A DNA stretch of 64,000 nucleotides from an uncultured cyanobacterium (GCA_963719515.1 CAVRCJ010000005.1:128001-192000), one strand, 5' to 3'. Numbered from the stretch's first letter, positions 31,899 through 42,542 are shown. Notes: generated from the sequence alone by a model not told the origin. Made by a program: numbers and translations.

Positions 31899-32232
31899 GG
31901 TGAGTGGCCTTGGGTGAGGATGTTTGCAGCGTTGGCTCTATCGCTCAGGGCAAAAATCAGCGGCCCAAAGCAGTGCATCGTCCGGGCAGTATGGCGCACT
32001 CTACTGTGTGGGCACTTGTTCTCTATTTATTATCCATCCTAGCCTGCGGGAGTTGCCTTCTATGTGCAGCGGATAACTTGCTCTATCGACCGGAAGCCTA
32101 GCTAGGCGCTATCCGGAATTGGGGCTCAGGCCATTGATTCTTTAGTGAAGGCACTGCCGTAGAATGGCCACTACAGCGACAGCCTTGTTGTCACCGTTAC
32201 ATTGATTGAGAGCCTGCACCGAGCCCCCCGCG

Positions 32233-34274
32233 ATGAAAACACTGCCGTTTATCATTGAGAAGTTCGTCCTCAGAGACAGGCGATCGCAGACTGGCGAGCA
32301 AGTTGAGCTGGTCGACGACTTTAAGGCGTTTCCCCAGGGCAGCGATACCGCAATTCCGGGCTACTTTATCATGAGCAGCGCAACGCCCAATATAGATGGC
32401 GACCGCGACTCTAGTGACGCGACCACAGATGGGAAAAGCGCCCGAGCTGCCCAGCAGCATAACCTGGAGAATGCGGCCCAGGGCATTAAGGAGATCGCCA
32501 ACTACCTCTACCAGATCTACACCGACACAGAAAAGTCCCCAGAACTCGTGATCGCCGTCCACGGCTACAACACCAGCCGTAGATCGGTAAAGAGCTGGTA
32601 CAAAGACATCTTCTACTACATCAACCGCTACGACGCGGCGATCGCCGACCCCAAAAACCAGGTGTTCATTGGCTATCGCTGGCCGTCTGAGAGCGTCAGG
32701 GTGGGCCGCCTGTTTGAATCTTTAATTGCGCTACCGCCGCTGCCGCGTGACCTGCTGGTCTTCGGAGGCCTAGCAACCCTGGGGCTACTAGTCATTGGGC
32801 TACTAGAATTATTTCTTTGGGAAAAGCTCGTCGCCGCGCTCCTGCTGACTATTCCGCTATTTATGCTGACGATGCTGGGCCTAATGATGGTCACCTTAGT
32901 GATAATGCGGCTGGTGGTCTACTTTCGCGATCGCTACCGGGCCAGCAATTTCGGCGTCTTGGACTTAGTGGAGCTGCTGCGGCAGATTGACTGGGCGCTG
33001 GTGCAGCTGAAGGCCAACGATATTGCGGACGACATTAAAATGCAAAGTCCGAGCTACTCAGAGACTGAGACCAACAGTAGAGGCTTTAGACCAGGCCACC
33101 AAGGAATGGCGACAGGAAGCGCGACGGGTGAAGCTGTCCTTTATTGGTCACAGCATGGGCGGCTTCGTGGTCACCAACGCGGTGCGCATTCTGTCAGATG
33201 TCTTCGACTCTCGCTCCATTGAGCAGCACCCCCCCGCTGACGTCGGATCCGTATTTCGGCTGGAGCGGCTGCTGCTGGCCTCCCCCGACATCCCGATTCT
33301 CGACCCTGATCTCTAGCCGGGCTAACTTCTTGGCCTCCTCCCTGCGCCGCTTTGCCGAATCCTACCTGTTCACTAGCGAGGGAGATATCGCCCTAAGAAT
33401 GGCCTCCACCACCGCCAACTACATTGCCTTTCCCAGCCGTACCCAGCATCAGGGCTACCGCCTGGGCAACGTCGCGCTGCAGGATGGAGACTTCGGCATC
33501 ATTAACCTCGACGCATTGAACAACGATTTCATTGAAGGTAAACCTCTTCAGGAGATTATTACTGGGTCATCTCAGAAAATTTTATCCAATCTGTTTGTGA
33601 CGGCTGAGCGATCTGGGGCCGATCGCTACGTCACTTTAGATAAGCTCTTCCGAAAGCAGCCTGGACAGGAAAACAAACAGATCACCGTAGCCGATTTTTT
33701 TACTTTCTTCGACTGCACAGACTACAAAGACGTTGAGTTCTCTGTGAGGGATCTGCATCGAACGCGAGAGCCTGGGCTAAGCGGCCTGTTTGCCTGGGCT
33801 AGGGAGAAAAAGCCGCTCGGGCCCTTTGACTATTTTTGGCTGACGGTTGACTACGCGACGCGCAGACTAGACGCCCCGAAGGGCATACTCACCAGCGCTC
33901 AGCGCAAGAAGATGCTGCGTCCCTTTGATTACTTTGGATTAGCCGTCGACTACATCACCGGAAGGCGAGACGTACATGGGGGCTACTTTCGAGGTGAGTT
34001 TACCCAGCAGATAATCTACCGCACGGCGTTTCTGGGGTTTACGGGATACTTAAAGACGGTAGATGACGATCCTCGAAACGCTTTTGACCCCAGCGGCGCT
34101 CTGAGTAAGTTTGACGCCGCCTGCCAAGAGAAAGGCATCCAGGGATTTTTGTCACCCATTCGCTACCGCGTTGATATTCAAAAGCACAAGCTCTCTGAGA
34201 CGATTCGGGAGCTGTTAGTGGCGATCGCCCCACCGCTGGAGAAAAAAGTCGAGGAGAAAGTCAAAGAGGAATAG
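32233..34274 (+). CDS. Membrane-associated alpha/beta hydrolase (DUF900-like), with apparent frameshifts near 33075 and 33300
   Basis: IAVHGYN, GYRWPS, FIGHSMG, LASPDIP, DVHGGYF motifs spread over three frames. Confidence 0.7.
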
Positions 34275-35844: not shown

Positions 35845-35906
35845 TGAGGGTGCAGAGAGGTGAAGTGCCTAAGCCAGTTTAAGCCAGTTTTCGAGCTAGC
35901 ACCACA

Positions 35907-36663
35907 CTACACCTCATCCCGGACTTCTGTCGGCTTTGCGGCGGCAAGCACATATTCTGGGTCATCGTCATCGCCACCGAACAGGCCAAACAGCGGCCCG
36001 AGCGCGGCTCCAAACAAAAAGCCGCCCGCGTGCGCCCAGTAGGCCACGCCGCCGCTCTCCATACCGACGTTGGCCGGGAGCCCCCAGGCTGGCAAACCCA
36101 TAGAGCGCCTGCTGCAAAAACCAGATGCCCAAAAACAGCAGCGCCGGGATGCGGGTCGTGAAGAAGAAGAAGCCCAGGGGAATCAAGGTTAAAATCCGCA
36201 CCTTGGGGTAGCGGAAGATGTAGGCCCCCATGACGCCAGCGATCGCCCCACTCGCGCCCAGGGAGGGAATGGCCGACTCTGGGGCAAAAAACCACTGAGC
36301 CAAAGACGCCAGCACGCCGCAGATGAGATAAAACACCAAAAAGCGGACGCGCCCCAGCTGCTCTTCTAGGTTGTTGCCAAAAATCCACAGGTAGAGCATG
36401 TTGCCCGCGACGTGCAAAAAGCCCGCGTGCAAAAATTCAGCCGACACCAGCGTCCCCCACTCCGAGAAGGTGGCTCCGCCAAAGCCGCTGTGAAAGCTGT
36501 CGGTGAGTTGCTTGGGCACCACGGCCCAGTGGTAGAAGAAGTCGGTGAGCTGCTGCGGGGGCAGCGTGGACTCGTAGAAAAAGAGCAGTACGTTGACGGC
36601 AATCAGCCCGTAGGTAACGTAGGGCGTGATTTTGATTGGGTTTTCATCACGAAGAGGAACCAC
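35907..36663 (-). CDS. Rhomboid intramembrane serine protease (apparent frameshift near 36075)
   Basis: FLHAGFLHVAGNML, GASGAIAG; the catalytic AHAGG motif is in the shifted frame. Confidence 0.85.
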
Positions 36664-36688
36664 AGACAGCGTGACCTGTAAAAATAAC

Positions 36689-37675
36689 TCACTTACCGTA
36701 GCGAATTTCGCCGGGGATTTTCCTCTCTCCTGCGCTAGGTTTTGCCCGGCTTGCCCTCACTTCGTAGGCCAGCAAGACCGCCACCGCCACCGCCAGCGGC
36801 AGCAGAAAATAGACAATGCGGTACACCAGCAGGGCCGCCAAGAGCTGGTCTGAAGGCACCGAGGGAGATAGGATCATCAGCATCACCGTTTCAAACACCC
36901 CCAGCCCCCCCGGAACGCTGCTAAACACCCCGGCGAACTGAGCCAGCAAAAAGGCGCTGAGAACGCTGCCGTAGGGCGGCGAACCGGGTAGCAGGACGGT
37001 CAAAATGGCGGCGGCCAAGGCCCAGTCGACGAGCGTCAGAACCAGCTGGGCGATCGCCAGCGGCAGCGGCAGCCGAGGCAGGGTCCACCGCCCCAGGGTT
37101 AGTCCTCGCTGGCTGAGGGCGCTCCAGCCAAAGTAGCCGAGGGTGATGGCCAGGCCCAAAACACCAACCCGCTGGAGCAGGGCCTCAGACAGGGGGAGCC
37201 CTGGGGGAATGTCGGGAGGGTGGAAGGTAAATACGGTGCCCCCCACCGCAAACAGCCCCACCCAAAAGCTGAGGCTGCAAAAGGCAATGATTTGAGCGAT
37301 CGCCAGGTTAGAAACGCCCCAGCGGCGATAGAAGCGATAGCGAATGGCGCTGCCGCTGAGGGCGGAGAACCCGGCGGTGCGGCTGATGGCGTAGGTCAAA
37401 AAAGCGGCTAGGGCCGTACGGCGGTAGGGCAGCGGGCAGCGGGCAAACCGAGCGGCGAGGGCGTCGTAGCCGGTCAGCGTGAGGTAGCTGAGGCCGACTA
37501 AGGCGATCGCGGTGGCTAGGGCGGCTGGGGGGATGGCCCAGATGCCCTGAAGAATATCCTGCAGGCTATAGCGCCCTAGCTCTTGGCGGATGGCCCAGGC
37601 GCACAGCCCAAATATACCCAGGCCAAGGACGGCAGGAATGATACGGGAGAGTCGGCGCAGGGTGATATGGGGCAT
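36689..37675 (-). CDS. Lysylphosphatidylglycerol synthase TM-domain (MprF N-terminal-like) protein
   Basis: TGYDALA, SGSAIRYRFY, VPGGLGVFE, YRIVYFLLP. Confidence 0.85.
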   Translation of the reverse strand: MPHITLRRLSRIIPAVLGLGIFGLCAWAIRQELGRYSLQDILQGIWAIPPAALATAIALVGLSYLTLTGYDALAARFARCPLPYRRTALAAFLTYAISRTAGFSALSGSAIRYRFYRRWGVSNLAIAQIIAFCSLSFWVGLFAVGGTVFTFHPPDIPPGLPLSEALLQRVGVLGLAITLGYFGWSALSQRGLTLGRWTLPRLPLPLAIAQLVLTLVDWALAAAILTVLLPGSPPYGSVLSAFLLAQFAGVFSSVPGGLGVFETVMLMILSPSVPSDQLLAALLVYRIVYFLLPLAVAVAVLLAYEVRASRAKPSAGERKIPGEIRYGK

Positions 37676-37977
37676 AGGAAGATTTTACGGGAGACCCTCA
37701 GCTTATCTAGGCTTCTGGGGGCTTCGCCCGCCTGCGAGGGCGAAGCGATTCTTTGAAGGGGCGATCGCGAAGTGAGCCTGCAGCGCTGATCGCCTAGCCT
37801 TTTACCACCAGGGCAATATGCTCCAAGATCTAATTGTGCCATTCCTGAAAAAATGACTCACCTTCAGCGCGCGTGAGGTGGAGCCGCTGCTCGGCGTCTG
37901 CTAGCGTTGTGATGGCATTCGGAGTCGCAACTGACATCGGTCGTAAATGGGCCAGAACCCTGCTCGACTAGTCTTAT

Positions 37978-38390
37978 AGAAGACGCCTTATATCCCACCG
38001 CTAAAGCGGTGGGATATAAGGCGGTGAGCGCAGCGAACAATCCCGAAACCCTCACCGTTACTGGGATTTGCTATAATAGAGATGGTCAATGACCCACCCG
38101 AGACGCAGACGCAACAGACAGCCTAACGTGACGAAATCGGCAACAAGCTGATGGCGCGGACAGCTCGGTAGACCGGGAAAAGAGGATAGGGCAACGGAGA
38201 CGACCCTAGAATCAACAATCAACATAGAATTCCTTGAATTCAACAAATAAGAACCGCAGGGCTTGCGGGGATAGTCTGTGGAGCGACCGTAAGACCGGAA
38301 AGGCTTAGGCCTCGAAGGCAGGTGCTATGAAGCAGAAAAATCTTGGAGCGATCCAAGAATCCCACGTGCTTTAGCCGTGGGAGAAGTCAA
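37978..38390 (+). mobile_element. Non-autonomous IS200/IS605 mini-element C (413 bp), related to the tnpB element at 60508-61866
   Basis: Left end AGAAGACGCC..CCCACCGCTAAAGCGGTGGGATATAAGGCGGTGAGCG after TTAT. The last ~115 nt closely match the right end of the 60508-61866 element and finish GTCAA. Confidence 0.9.
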
Positions 38391-38410
38391 TGTATGGCGT
38401 TGGTATGGGT
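38253..38410 (+). ncRNA. Predicted TnpB omega-RNA (right-end scaffold plus flank-derived guide)
   Basis: Corresponds to the tnpB 3' end (TAGLAGIVCGATVRP-coding sequence) through the right-end hairpin, which is the known position of TnpB omega-RNAs. Confidence 0.6.
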
Positions 38411-38485
38411 TGAGTTGGCGGCGATCGCAACAGGGAAATCTGCGCGGGGTATGATAGCGCTTTAAGCGACTGTAGGCGTGGGACG

Positions 38486-39780
38486 ATGACTAGCCGCCAA
38501 GAGATGGAAGACCTGCTCGATGAAATGTACAATGCCTTTTCTCCTACGCCGCTACAGCCAGGAGACCCGGCCTATGTAGATTGTCGGGCCGTTCGGGGGG
38601 ATGAGGATGTGCTGGAGGATCTGGGGCGCACGGTAAGGCGATCGCAGATTTTGACCTACCAACTCTATTCCGGCTACCGGGGCTCGGGGAAAACTACAGA
38701 GCTGCTGCGGCTGAAGAAGCACTTAGAAGACAAAGGCCACGTGATGGTCTACTTCGCGGCGGATGAGGAAGACCTCAGCGTCCAGGACGCCCGTACACCG
38801 ATATTTTGCTGGCCTGCACCCGGCACCTGCTGCGCAAACTCGACGAGGCCAACCCAGACCCAATTCTCGACTGGCTGAAAGGGCGGCTCCGCGACCTAAA
38901 GGACGTGATGCTGACTGAGATTAGCGCAGATGACATCACCATAGAGGTGGGGCTGAAGGAGTTCGCTAAGCTGACGACGGCGGTGCGCCGAGAGCCGGGC
39001 CAGCGGCAAAAGATTCGCGATCGCATTGAGCCCCACACCGAGACGCTGATTCAGGCGCTGAATGCGTTTATTGCCGATGGTAAAGGGCAGCTACCAGAAA
39101 AGACAAAGCTGCTGGTGATTGCCGATAACCTGGACCGCATTGTGCCGATCTTTCGCGACAACGGACGCAGCAACCACGAGGAGATCTTTCTCGATCGCCA
39201 CGAGCAGCTAAAGGCGCTGGACTGCCATATTATCTACACGGTGCCGATTTCGATGGTCTATTCTCGCTGGGCCACGGAGCTAAAGGACAACTACGGCATT
39301 CCGCAGGTGCTGCCGTCGATTATGGTGCGGCAGGAGGATGGTGAGCCTTACGCTGCGGGGTTGGAGAAGCTGCAGGAGATCGTTCGGCTGAGAGTACCGG
39401 AGCATTTGCGGGCGTCGCTGGTGCCGGAGGTGTTTGAGTCGGTGGAGGTGCTGCAGGAGCTTTGTTTGATCAGCGGCGGCTATGCGCGGGATTTGGTGCA
39501 GCTGATGCAGGAGGCGATCAATAGGACGGAGACGCTGCCGATTCGGGCGCGGGCGGTGCAGCGGGCGGCGGATTCGCTGCGGGATGTGTATCGGCGAGCA
39601 GTGGAGGAGGACCAGTGGGCAGTGCTGCGGGAGATCCACAGCGATAGAAAGATCGATAATGGAGAGGTAGAGCGGAGCTTGCTGTTCAGCCGCTGCGTGC
39701 TGGAGTATCGCTATTACGATGCGCAGGGCAGTAAGCAAACCTGGTATGACGTTCATCCGGTGTTGTGGAAGGAGCTGTAG
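38486..39780 (+). CDS. P-loop AAA/STAND-like ATPase (one apparent frameshift near 38790)
   Basis: Walker A GYRGSGKTT, Walker B LLVIADNLD, SGGYARD, C-terminal WYDVHP. Confidence 0.85.
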
Positions 39781-39801
39781 TGGCTGAGCAACTGAGGAAA
39801 G

Positions 39802-42542
39802 GTGGCGTTGGGCAACTGGATGCGTCAGGCTTTTGGAGCGCTTGCAGGAAGCAATTATCGCTGGAGCCCTGAGGCAGAGGAGGTGGTGGGTGACCTGCTG
39901 CGGGCGCTGCGGCGTAAGCGCGGGTTTGGCCTATTTTTTGTGCAGTGCAGCCCTGCCCAAGGGCAGCAGGTGATGGCGGCTATTCAGGAGCGACTGCCTC
40001 AGAAGCGGCTGGCGGAGTTTGAGCTAGAGCGCGATAGCAAGACGCTCTATGGTGAGCTGCTGGAGAGCTATCGGGCGGAGCCGTTTGAGGTGGCTTGCGT
40101 GACGGGGGTAGAGCAAGCGCTGTATGACTATGAGGATACGAAGCGCATTGCGGGGTGGAGTTCGGAAGAGATATATAACTATAGCTGGAAGGGGCTGCCG
40201 CCGCTGCTAAGCCACCTTAACCGGCAGCGAGAAGCGTTTGAGGCCAATCTTCCTGTTGCATTACTTTTTTTGGTGCCGGGATTCGTAATTGACTATTTCG
40301 TTCAACGAGCACCAGATTTCTTTGATTGGCGCTCAGGTTTTTTTAGGCTATCTCCTAGAATCGGAAGATGCGGCGAAAAGCTATTTGAGGAGCTAACCAG
40401 TGAAGAATTTGAGGAATATAAAGAACTATCTTCAGAGAAACGTCTTCAAAGAATTCTACAGATCAAAGATTTATTGAAGTCTAGCGATTTAGAAAAAGAG
40501 CAGCAAGCGCAGATGCTGCGAGAGCAAGGACGCTTGTTTAGCAGTGGTGATGATTTCGAACAGTCTTTAGATTGCTACAGTCGCGCAATAAAATTTCAGC
40601 CAGATTGTCATGAAACATTTAGAAGCAAAGGAATTGTACTACGTAATCTAGAACGATACGAGGAGGCGATCGCTGCCTATGACACCGCTCTCAACATCAA
40701 GCCGGACAATCACAAGGTGCTCAACAACAAAGGAATTGCGCTATATCGTCTAGAACGATACGAGGAGGCGATCGCCGCCTATGACGCCGCCCTCATCATC
40801 AAGCCGGACAACCACTATGCTCTCAAAAGCAAAGGATTTGCGCTACGGAATCTAGAACGATACGAGGAGGCGATCGCCGCCTATGACGCCGCACTCATCA
40901 TCAAGCCGGACTTCCACGAGGCGCTCAACATCAAAGGAAATGCGCTACGGAATCTAGAACGATACGAGGAGGCGATCGCCGCCTATGACGCCGCCCTCAA
41001 CATCAAGCCGGACCTACCACGAGGCGCTCAACAACAAAGGATTTGCGCTAGATGATCTAGAACGATACGAGGAGGCGATCGCCGCCTATGACGCCGCCCT
41101 CAACATCAAGCCGGACGACCACAAGGCGCTCAACAACAAAGGAAATGCGCTAGGTAATCTAGAACGATACGAGGAGGCGATCGCCGCCTATGACGCCGCC
41201 CTCAACATCAAGCCGGACAAACACGAGGTGCTCAACAACAAAGGAATTGCGCTATATCGTCTAGAACGATACGAGGCGGCGATCGCCGCCTATGACGCCG
41301 CCCTCACCATCAAGCCGGACAACCACGATGCGCTCAACAACAAAGGAAATGCGCTAGATAATCTAGAACGATACGAGGAGGCGATCGCCGCCTATGACGC
41401 CGCCCTCAACATCAAGCCGGACTACCACGAGGCGCTCAACAACAAAGGAATTGCGCTAGGTAATCTAGAACGATACGAGGAGGCGATCGCCGCCTATGAC
41501 GCCGCCCTCAACATCAAGCCGGACAAACACGAGGTGCTCTACAACAAAGGAAATGCGCTATATCGTCTAGAACGATACGAGGAGGCGATCGCCGCCTATG
41601 ACGCCGCCCTCACCATCAACCCGGACAAACACGATGCGCTCAACAACAAAGGAAATGCGCTAGATGATCTAGAGCGATACGAGGAGGCGATCGCCGCCTA
41701 TGACGCCGCCCTCACCATCAAGCCGGACTACCACGGGGCGCTCAACAACAAAGGATTTGCGCTAGGGAATCTAAAACGATACGAGGAGGCGATCGCCGCC
41801 TATGACGCCGCCCTCAACATCAAGCCGGACTACCACGGGGCGCTCAACAACAAAGGAACTGCGCTAGGGAATCTAAAACGATACGAGGAGGCGATCGCCG
41901 CCTTTGACGCCGCCCTTAACATCAAGCCGGACCTCCACGATGCGCTCAACAACAAAGGACTTGCGCTAGCTGACCTAGAACGATACGAGGAGGCGATCGC
42001 CGCCTATGACGCTGCTCTCAACATCAAGCCGGACAAACACGGGGCGCTTAACAACAAAGGAAATGCGCTAGCTAATCTAGAACAATACGAGGCGGCGATC
42101 GCCTCCTATGACGCTGCTCTCAACATCAAGCCAGACCTCCACAAGGCGCTCAACAACAAAGGAAATGCGCATATGACCTAGAGCGATACGAGGAGGCGAT
42201 CGCCGCCTATGACGCCGCCCTCAACATCAAGCCGGACACGAGGCGCTCAACAACAAAGGAATTGCGCTAGGGAATCTAGAACGATACGAGGAGGCGATCG
42301 CCGCCTATGACGCCGCCCTCATCATCAAGCCGGACAAACACGATGTGCTCTACAACAAAGCCTGCTGCTACGGACTACAGGGTCAAGTAGACTCAGCCCT
42401 CCTCTGGCTAGAAAAAGCGATCGCCCTCGACTCTGAATATCGCACTATGGCTTCAGCTGACAGCGACTTTGACTCTATTCGAGACAACAAGCGCTTTCAG
42501 CAACTGCTCCATGCCACCCAAAGCAACGGGAGCGATCGCTGA
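39802..42542 (+). CDS. TPR-repeat protein with an N-terminal globular domain (possibly an inactive P-loop); frameshifts inside the repeat array
   Basis: LNRQRE...APDFFDWRSG domain, then ~18 TPRs and the terminal YNKACCYGLQG...DSDFDSIR cap. Confidence 0.85.
40600..42360 (+). repeat. Tandem array of ~17 near-identical 102-bp TPR-coding units
   Basis: CTAGAACGATACGAGGAGGCGATCGCCGCCTATGACGCCGCCCTC recurs about every 102 bp from 40648 to 42276. Confidence 0.95.

Follow-up and report, generated by a model that had tools for sequence, protein, structure and literature searches.

A conserved cyanobacterial gene pair joins a predicted AAA+ ATPase to a partner protein whose tandem tetratricopeptide repeats vary mainly at concave-face codons

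INTRODUCTION

What kind of system joins a P-loop ATPase to a protein made of many almost identical tetratricopeptide repeats (TPRs) that differ from one another mainly at a handful of codons? The question is raised by a locus in the DNA of an uncultured cyanobacterium (GCA_963719515.1, CAVRCJ010000005.1:128001-192000), a stretch of 64,000 nucleotides that we refer to, at its full length, as the window. Two co-directional genes on the + strand, 21-39 bp apart, lie here at positions 38486-42542; the first encodes the ATPase, and the second, which we call the partner gene, carries the repeat array. A preliminary description of the locus, made from the sequence alone, proposed that the pair is a split system resembling NOD-like receptors (NLRs), diversified by recombination and serving recognition or conflict.

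On balance, we favor a reading in which the locus is a conserved two-gene switch-and-sensor cassette, where an active ATPase would work together with a dead AAA+ domain that bears an evolving TPR arm. Below, we set out the variation within the array, the predicted nature and docking of the two proteins, the recurrence of the pair in other cyanobacteria, and the state of this particular copy, and then weigh the sensor role against other explanations.

RESULTS

The units of the array differ mainly at concave-face positions

Tandem Repeats Finder delimits the array to 40626-42360, with a period of 102, 17.0 copies, and 89% matches at the DNA level. An anchor motif occurs 17 times within it at a spacing of 102 bp, except for single spacings of 103, 101, and 98 bp. 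When the units are cut in frame (Table 1), they give 17 TPRs of 34 residues each that keep G8, A20, A27, and P32. The Pfam families TPR_1, TPR_2, and TPR_8 match in 34-residue units, with TPR_1 scores of 113.4, 293.3, and 26.9 bits (cut-off, 27.8) on the three open reading frame (ORF) pieces of the gene. TPR families are the sole matches to the ORF at 42345-42542, and no further domain follows the array. The DNA of the unit has no match anywhere else in the genome.

Variation within the unit is strongly non-uniform. Entropy by TPR position amounts to 2.38 bits at position 34, 2.26 at position 12, 2.09 at position 2, 1.97 at position 9, 1.38 at position 13, and 1.29 at position 29, and 15 positions are invariant in amino acid across the units of the array. 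At codons 2, 9, 12, 13, and 34, the non-synonymous divergence (dN) is 0.76 and the synonymous divergence (dS) is 0.34, as compared with a dN of 0.029 and a dS of 0.068 (pN, 0.028; pS, 0.065) at the 28 codons outside 2, 9, 12, 13, 29, and 34; these figures are Nei-Gojobori counts over units 2-17. The same five codons account for 71% of the non-synonymous pairwise differences.

To avoid a post-hoc choice of positions, we took as an a-priori test set positions 2, 5, 9, 12, 13, 33, and 34, which the relevant part of Magliery & Regan 2005 (PMC1261162) gives as the most variable positions of TPRs, located on the concave face. These seven positions hold 61-65% of the amino-acid pairwise differences, vs 20.6% expected, a share that 6-7 of 200,000 random seven-position sets reach. 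This result supersedes an earlier, crude multinomial test on distinct-residue counts (P 0.0015).

The combination of variable residues is different in each of the 17 units. In addition, half of the position pairs (18 of 36) fail the four-gamete test, so that variants recur in new combinations, and either the units recombine or the same changes have arisen repeatedly. The preliminary description had anticipated much of this: it placed about 17 repeats within these coordinates, with variation concentrated at positions 34, 2, 9, 12, and 13 of the TPR binding groove and with the same variants returning in new combinations. Its coordinates and repeat number proved correct, the variable codons coincide with the concave-face positions given in the part of PMC1261162 used here, and the per-codon dN/dS comparison that it had suggested, the a-priori test, and 14 other arrays (see below) speak for, rather than establish, diversifying selection at surface positions. 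Variation spread evenly along the unit after read-level correction, which it had named as the pattern that would speak against it, is not what the assembled units show.

It had also noted a HIP1 site (GCGATCGC) in each unit, and we counted one in 17 of 17 units, always on the codons for E-A-I-A. We considered HIP1 as a functional part of the unit and rejected this, as the other arrays (14 orthologous arrays) carry it in only 0-9 units each. The HIP1 site in each unit is a by-product of the E-A-I-A codons that is particular to the source genome.

An Orc/Cdc6-STAND-type ATPase and a partner domain predicted to dock on it

The ATPase gene is assembled as two ORFs, at 38486-38878 and 38806-39780. 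Its 3' piece is 90% identical to a 441-aa homologue (P0001) over 100% of the length of the piece and is matched by 1221 proteins at E<=1e-5, the full-length relatives having ~431 aa. Identity is 70-90% across Symploca, Roseofilum, Baaleninema, Phormidesmis, and Spirulina and ~58% to Microcoleus. The source names of these relatives are limited to "AAA family ATPase" and "P-loop NTPase fold protein".

A structural model of the ATPase, built on P0001 (pLDDT 87.7), comprises a nucleotide-binding domain, a lid, and a winged helix in one module, which is the layout of STAND proteins and NLRs. In VIA comparisons, the model matches TnsC (Z 15.6), Cdc6/Orc1 (Z 15.0), and, over its whole length (residues 26-441), archaeal SSO1545 and PABY2304 (Z 14.5). 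Among the STAND types, ZAR1 matches at Z 12.3 (over 280 residues), MalT at 11.5, NRC2 at 11.1, and CED-4 at 9.5. Because of these fold matches, the product of gene 1 can be assigned, at the level of the model, to the AAA+ ATPases of Orc/Cdc6-STAND type with a lid and a winged helix.

Family profiles were less informative. Neither the ATPase nor the N-terminal domain of the partner scores above the cut-off of any Pfam, NCBIfam, or PADLOC model, and the Pfam models NACHT and NB-ARC match neither of the two ATPase pieces (E<=5) nor an intact paralogue in the same genome (E<=0.1). Below the cut-off, the pieces and the paralogue match AAA_16, ATPase_2, AAA_22, KAP_NTPase, nSTAND_NTPase5, and NPHP3_N, and the 5' part weakly matches AAA_30, AAA_16, nSTAND_NTPase5, and ATPase_2. 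The term "NLR-like" in the preliminary description is a fair analogy as far as the layout and the plant NLR matches (Z 11-12) are concerned, but it falls short in that no NACHT or NB-ARC match exists and that TnsC, Orc, and archaeal AAA+ proteins fit better (Z 14.5-15.6).

The N-terminal domain of the partner was modeled with a pLDDT of 84.2, and its top 50 VIA matches are all AAA+ ATPases (Hda, ORC4, RFC, TnsC, Pex6, NSF-D2), at Z 9.1-11.4. At the P-loop position, it reads VQCSPAQGQQ, with no GK[ST] and no Walker A lysine, and at the Walker B position it reads TGVE, without the acidic pair. The model and these motifs together suggest an AAA+-like module that has lost its nucleotide-binding motifs and is presumably dead. 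With a profile of the domain, 2476 cluster representatives are retrieved (E<=0.001); among the best 150 of these, the domain stands at or near the N-terminus.

When the ATPase and the partner domain were modeled as a complex, the score was 0.68, vs 0.00 for the best of three controls. The mark applied to this score is reached by 116 of 157 solved complexes and by 2 of 215 mismatched pairs, counts that are only approximate here because this analysis' own alignments served as input. Contacts agree between runs to at least 76%, and the pLDDT of the partner is no lower than 73. In the modeled interface, the most conserved motif of the partner, RAPDFFDWRS, faces the ATPase P-loop, the residues after Walker B, and the lid. 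Specifically, partner residues 161-163 and 168-174 lie in the interface beside the P-loop; among the arginines of the partner, R137 is invariant, and R163 and R171 are nearly invariant, so that all three are at most candidates for an arginine finger of the kind expected in both proteins of the nSTAND2 operon (see Discussion). The preliminary description had proposed modeling of this kind as a check; its outcome, an AAA+ fold for the N-terminal domain and a complex that scores well above the controls, supports docking of the two proteins as a prediction.

The pair recurs across cyanobacteria, and its array changes by whole units

An ATPase relative is encoded in 481 stretches of species-representative genomes, mostly of filamentous cyanobacteria. 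The comparison of loci covers 79 loci kept from these 481 stretches, the search having been made with full-length ATPase rows. The partner domain lies directly downstream of the ATPase in 69 of the 79 loci, and contig ends account for at least 5 of the other 10. When the flanking ORFs are clustered, the two genes are the only widely common ones (79 and 70 loci), the next cluster being present in 20 loci. The pair is a conserved cyanobacterial two-gene, operon-like cassette, in keeping with the operon of the preliminary description. A copy of the pair is also carried by Nostoc punctiforme.

In most loci, an array of period 102 begins ~750-1100 bp after the ATPase. Its copy number ranges from 2 to 38.6, the maximum (95% matches) being found in the complete genome of Trichodesmium erythraeum IMS101, and several contigs among the related loci end inside the array. 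In 19 of 28 loci, domain and array share a single ORF, which ends 39-230 residues past the array with no further domain. The positions that vary are also shared: of 14 orthologous arrays free of stops, 12 have position 12 among their five most variable positions, and 12 have position 9 there; the count is 10 for position 34, 7 for position 2, and 5 apiece for positions 5 and 13 (the arrays of L034, L051, and L037, which have stops in their best frame, were omitted from this count).

The Nostoc-type relatives show how such arrays differ between close relatives. Of the best 120 Nostoc-type partner relatives, 34 fall into one length class modulo 34, with ~3.5 per class expected and 10 in the second class. 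This main class consists of 32 proteins at 316-588 aa in 34-residue steps and two longer ones (792 and 826 aa). The unit number shifts by whole 34-residue units among these close relatives, in keeping with the repeat-diversified array of the preliminary description, and this polymorphism is seen in Nostoc-type relatives rather than in strains of the source species. Of 77 Nostoc-type pairs of equal length, 75 show lower identity in the array than in the N-terminal domain (medians, 0.66 vs 0.88), in a comparison that is ungapped, so that shuffled units lower the identity too. These pairs differ most at positions 12, 2, 34, 17, 9, 13, and 5.

Elsewhere among the cyanobacteria, this N-terminal domain and its TPRs precede a CHAT (P0164) or HEAT (P0136) module, or a HetZ-related or HTH module (P0497, P0508, P0513, P0466, and P0523). 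The source genome itself carries a second, intact cassette on contig C1 (L005 5887-11930), in which the ATPase has 440 aa (35% identity) and the partner 1580 aa. In this paralogous partner, the N-terminal domain recurs (BLASTP E 2e-4), and TPR-like helices, nSTAND1, and 13 WD40 repeats are present as well.

A possible switch-and-sensor mechanism

The anatomy of the genes, their conserved pairing, and the way in which the units vary are observed; that the two proteins dock, that the arm is coupled to the ATPase, and that it senses a ligand is what we infer, as follows. Gene 1 encodes an Orc/Cdc6- and STAND-like AAA+ ATPase of ~431 aa, in which both Walker motifs (A and B) are joined by a lid and a C-terminal winged helix, and gene 2 encodes a protein of ~900 aa, in which an AAA+ domain without nucleotide motifs precedes an open-ended TPR solenoid. 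The dead domain would dock on the ATPase beside the nucleotide site, like the inactive subunit of an Orc/clamp-loader-type hetero-oligomer, and the state of the TPR arm would thus be coupled to ATP-driven assembly. The array, in turn, would change by the gain, loss, and shuffling of whole 102-bp units. The 60-bp core of the unit would be kept alike, probably via recombination between units, and the concave-face codons 2, 5, 9, 12, 13, and 34 would be kept diverse. With a homogenized core and diverse concave codons, the binding surface could be re-tuned quickly, as in the repeats of fungal NLRs.

The frameshifts in this copy are probably assembly errors

Table 1. Features of the two-gene locus, in positions of the window
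Feature	Position	Strand	Remarks
ATPase gene, 5' part (frame 2)	38486..38791	+	N-terminal helices, Walker A GYRGSGKTTEL; aligns to 431-aa homologues up to SVQDA
ATPase break, one base absent	38792..38793	+	GCx-CAG-TAC of homologues is GCC-C-G-TAC here
ATPase gene, 3' part (frame 1)	38794..39780	+	Helical insert, Walker B region VIADNLDRI, lid, C-terminal winged helix
Partner gene, predicted dead AAA+-like N-terminal docking domain and helical linker	39820..40506	+	ORF opens with GTG at 39802; in-frame ATG at 39820
Stretch probably out of frame between compensating extra bases (+1, +2)	40355..40373	+	Metagenome contig omits 1 base at 40355 and 2 at 40372
Degenerate N-terminal capping TPR	40507..40608	+	In register, 102 bp ahead of unit 1; G8 and P32 kept
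TPR array, 17 units of 102 bp	40609..42338	+	Variable codons 2, 9, 12, 13, 29, and 34; core codons 14-28 almost invariant, with HIP1
One extra base, border of units 4 and 5	41017	+	Anchor spacing 103; GAC-CTA-C-CAC; frame 1 to 2
One base missing, unit 16, codons 11-12	42170..42172	+	Spacing 101; best gap after unit base 31
Four bases missing, border of units 16 and 17 (codon 34 and first base of unit 17)	42235..42238	+	Spacing 98; CCGGAC-ACGAGG
Degenerate C-terminal capping TPR and short tail to the stop codon	42339..42542	+	Cap at 42339-42440

As assembled, both genes are frameshifted, once in the ATPase gene and three times in the array (Table 1), a point that the preliminary description does not mention, just as it does not mention the AAA+-like nature of the partner's N-terminal domain. 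Across the ATPase junction, 14 homologues read SVQD[AV]QYTDILL or a close variant, and one base of the CAG codon is absent here at ~38792; in a DNA alignment, this base is present in a same-genus genome and in Nodosilinea PCC 7104. For the stretch that is probably out of frame upstream of the array, the corrected frame fits the family consensus FFK.xES.ED better, as judged by eye.

We compared the region 35900-40620 with metagenome contigs from four public runs of one study (word shares, 0.07-0.22); no RNA dataset is listed among the public sequencing runs that contain the locus. A contig of 500 bases with 3 substitutions has an extra A behind 38792 that restores the frame of the ATPase, and another, which covers 35900-36133 and differs by 2 substitutions, is one base shorter at 36079, within the break of a neighboring rhomboid protease gene. 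Both testable frameshifts (38792 and 36079) are therefore absent in near-identical (~99%) metagenome contigs, and further differences from such contigs are single-base indels at 36686, 39818/39821, and 40355, as well as two bases at 40372. In the 5.28-Mb genome as a whole, we counted 160 frameshift-like ORF overlaps, a rough proxy that includes false positives, and the 10-kb bin of the locus is one of 8 among 538 bins with at least three.

Since the near-identical contigs lack both testable breaks, the four frameshifts are probably assembly errors, and the organism itself probably carries an intact copy. We read the region as a local patch of poor consensus, rather than as the mark of a generally bad assembly or of specific decay of the cassette. 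That the cassette is instead a decaying pseudogene pair, with four real frameshifts and neither protein made, seems unlikely to us. Such decay would fit the accumulation of one frameshift in the ATPase gene and three in the TPR gene, the lack of a match in three other genomes of the genus (80%, 93%, and 93% complete) with only a 272-bp relic in a fourth, the element resembling a miniature inverted-repeat transposable element (MITE) directly upstream of the ATPase start, and the fact that, among 28 other assemblies, 5 have an ORF that ends within the array. However, unrelated neighbors, namely the rhomboid protease gene and an alpha/beta-hydrolase-like gene in three pieces, are frameshifted too, which points to local sequence quality rather than to loss of the cassette. 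The ~99% identical contigs restore the frame at both testable sites and reveal more single-base indels nearby, both genes apart from their breaks are near the family consensus (the ATPase being 90% identical to P0001), and synonymous as well as non-synonymous divergence in the array core is still low.

The rhomboid protease gene, at 35907-36756 on the - strand, matches, within 35971-36756, only Pfam positions 3-117 of 143, with its C-terminal GGVAYWAHAGG in another frame. The alpha/beta-hydrolase-like gene, at 32206-34271 on the + strand, consists of three overlapping ORFs in different frames, the middle piece of which matches DUF676 and DUF900. The MITE-like element, at 37973-38391 (~420 bp), has four near-full copies elsewhere in the genome that are 88-91% identical, and its ends also occur 1.2-1.4 kb apart at several other places, as if flanking a longer parent element. 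Metagenome contigs pile up at this element, with a depth of up to 117 and loose ends at 38338-38390. An Rfam search of 37700-38600 at E<=0.01 returned nothing. The 272-bp fragment of the ATPase gene in the same-genus genome G004 (L086 1501-1773) is 89% identical and has unrelated flanks.

DISCUSSION

Sensor or scaffold

Three features argue for a sensor-switch or conflict role: the diversifying TPR face, the combination of an active NTPase with a dead NTPase fused to repeats, and the existence of relatives with extra C-terminal modules. A role in conflict, one of the options in the preliminary description, is not supported here: there is no effector after the array, no PADLOC or NCBIfam match beyond chance, and no consistent defense neighborhood. 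The genes adjoining the cassette in the window are ordinary and encode a metallophosphoesterase, a rhomboid protease, an LPG-synthase-like membrane protein, and a type III glutamine synthetase. Clear defense genes were found near 3 of 17 loci (Shango twice and a TIR protein once), the other matches being candidate families or partial domains. In two of the related loci, L048 (2085-6031) and L060 (1593-6717), the cassette is preceded, at a distance of 2-6 kb, by full-length Shango SngB and SngC.

Several points weigh against a switch-and-sensor cassette. No effector domain was found in the cassette, either in the window proteins or after the array in the 19 of 28 related loci with a single ORF. 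The PADLOC check, which the preliminary description had also proposed, returned from PADLOC-DB 2.0 nothing beyond a weak P-loop match, namely of the first ATPase piece to PDC-S20 (E 2e-4, 33 P-loop residues) and PrrC (E 0.01). No consistent defense context emerged from 140 flanking ORFs of 17 loci, a count that has no baseline and is accordingly no evidence either way. For a conflict gene, an ATPase that is 70-90% identical across genera would be unusually conserved. AAA+ hetero-oligomers are well represented among solved structures, and because they abound there, the pass of the complex model may reflect likeness to such known complexes rather than binding of this pair. As to selection, gene conversion distorts dN/dS between units of one array, and the dS of 0.34 at the variable codons comes partly from multi-step codon paths. 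Finally, the three indels of the array, its unit number, and its unit order rest on one assembly with local errors, the cassette is lacking in four other genomes of the genus, apart from the relic in one, and the partner ORF stops inside the array in five of the 28 other assemblies (L034, L037, L050, L051, and L059), which signals either frequent frameshifts or frequent misassembly.

Within the sensor reading, a more specific version can be put forward, though only tentatively: the cassette may be a widespread innate-immunity-like or kin/non-self receptor of filamentous cyanobacteria, in which a split Orc/STAND-type AAA+ hetero-complex, free of any enzyme effector and equipped with a TPR solenoid that is shaped by concerted evolution and unit shuffling, would signal through ligand-triggered, ATP-dependent polymerization of the TPR protein.

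A structural or scaffold system, in which the TPR protein polymerizes or bridges, the ATPase serves as an assembly factor, the concave positions drift, and recombination homogenizes the rest, is in our view a doubtful alternative, slightly behind decay of this copy. It has a precedent in Anabaena PCC 7120, where, according to the sections of Springstein et al. 2020 (PMC7002697) on which we draw, All4981, a ~650-aa TPR protein that occurs in filamentous cyanobacteria (subsections III-V), forms filaments and is probably essential. As described there, all4981 is co-transcribed with the upstream all4982, the two proteins bind each other, and the genes overlap by ATGA. A 4-base gene overlap like that of all4982/all4981 is also present in the Nostoc pair of L077, the pair family occurs mostly in filamentous taxa, the cassette is without an effector, and its ATPase is highly conserved, points that run parallel to the Anabaena case. 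Nevertheless, no protein of PCC 7120 appears in the best 120 of either Nostoc-type search (down to 66% and 75% identity) or in 10 clusters. The dN of 0.76 at the variable codons, which is ~11 times the dS of 0.068 in the rest of the unit, fits drift alone poorly, as does the fact that the same positions differ between close strains, and the signalling or protease modules of relatives (CHAT, HTH, and nSTAND1-WD40) do not suit a scaffold.

That the array, its length, or its variant pattern is an assembly artefact, produced by expansion or read chimerism, is very improbable: the several indel differences from near-identical contigs and the local cluster of frameshift-like overlaps could be cited for it, but an array of the same period lies in the same place in most of the 79 independent loci and reaches 38.6 copies in a complete genome, the same positions are variable in 14 other arrays, sequencing errors would not hit the same codons with recurring residues, and the genome has no second array of this unit as a source of mixing.

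The switch-and-sensor cassette, which we continue to favor, would be of interest for several reasons. Relatives of its ATPase occur at 481 or more places in species-representative genomes, a family without a Pfam, NCBIfam, or PADLOC model. Its TPR arm bears the signature that marks fungal non-self receptors, that is, repeats that are alike, a diversified face, and polymorphism in unit number. If the cassette is a receptor switch, recognition by shuffled repeats would also exist in a bacterial system, one built as a split AAA+ pair that has no effector fused to it, and if signalling by polymerization holds as well, the family would be tied to the filament-forming, All4982-binding All4981. If it is instead a filament system of the All4981/All4982 type, the evolution of a cytoskeletal protein would resemble that of an immune receptor, which would be equally unexpected. 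The window offers a clean example with 17 units, and it is also a warning that such arrays and their surroundings attract assembly errors.

Comparison with known systems

The repeats of fungal NLRs provide a close parallel to the array. The relevant parts of Dyrka et al. 2014 (PMC4986451, citing Paoletti 2007 and Chevanne 2010) describe high internal conservation, number polymorphism, and concerted evolution of these repeats, with variable, positively selected TPR residues on the concave face of the solenoid. Near-identical units, polymorphism in repeat number, and variable concave-face residues are features that the array shares with the WD40, ANK, and TPR repeats of fungal NLRs, as far as that account goes, and the pattern of conserved repeats with hypervariable codons that the preliminary description had called fungal NLR-like agrees with it. 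The two differ in their architecture. In the fungal proteins, as described in the same parts of the paper, NOD ATPase, repeats, and N-terminal effector form one polypeptide, whereas the cassette keeps its ATPase in a gene of its own, apart from the TPR protein, both in this locus and in 69 of 79 loci. It also places a presumably dead AAA+ module in between and contains no effector.

Orc1/Cdc6, ORC, TnsC, and archaeal ATPase_2-type proteins (PDB 2qby, 7jgr, 7mbw, 2fna, and 2qen) provide the best fold matches to the ATPase (Z 14.5-15.6), and ORC mixes active and inactive AAA+ subunits, according to the pertinent part of PMC8195603. Unlike in these proteins, there is no sign at this locus of a role in replication or transposition, the partner has a TPR array, and Pfam ATPase_2 and AAA_16 stay below their curated cut-offs. 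The All4981/All4982 pair resembles the cassette as a filamentous-cyanobacterial TPR protein that is co-transcribed with, and binds, the product of the upstream gene, with the ATGA overlap also seen in L077, as far as the consulted sections of PMC7002697 describe it. It differs in that All4981 is treated there as a filament-forming cytoskeletal protein; the same sections do not state the protein type of All4982, and the only ATPase they name is the pilus protein PilB.

The closest described system appears to be the nSTAND2 two-gene operon, a judgment made by architecture and description; no library model named nSTAND2 matched. In the passages used here of Kaur, Iyer, Burroughs & Aravind 2021 (eLife, PMC8195603), it is a two-gene counter-invader operon predicted to form a hetero-multimer. 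It resembles the cassette in its two adjacent co-directional genes, the first of which encodes an active STAND/Orc-type NTPase with a winged helix, and in the eroded NTPase module of its second gene, fused to TPRs and variable C-terminal modules, according to those passages; the hetero-multimer that its authors predict agrees with the docking model presented here. Both products of our locus likewise have a predicted AAA+ fold in two adjacent genes, one of them eroded. The ATPase model also matches the mitochondrial small-subunit ribosome chains 6gaz_Ag, 9g5b_X, and 8d8l_W, which we take to be S29. Mitochondrial S29/Dap3 is named as a relative of nSTAND2 in the portion of PMC8195603 considered here.

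The differences from the nSTAND2 operon lie in its distribution and in its second protein. The table of nSTAND2 operons lists Proteobacteria and one Calditrichaeota but no cyanobacterium (PMC8195603, Figure 6 source data). Its second protein ends in HEPN or GT4, as stated in the passages cited, whereas the window protein ends after its TPRs; HEPN and GT4 were not seen among the few partner proteins scanned, some relatives adding CHAT, HEAT, HetZ-related/HTH, or nSTAND1-WD40 modules instead. No winged helix is evident after the presumably dead domain of the window protein, and its TPRs form a DNA-level array with hypervariable codons, a feature that those passages of PMC8195603 do not describe. 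Compared with the two-gene logic of nSTAND2, what would be new in the present cassette is that it is cyanobacterial, lacks an effector, and carries a hypervariable, DNA-level TPR array.

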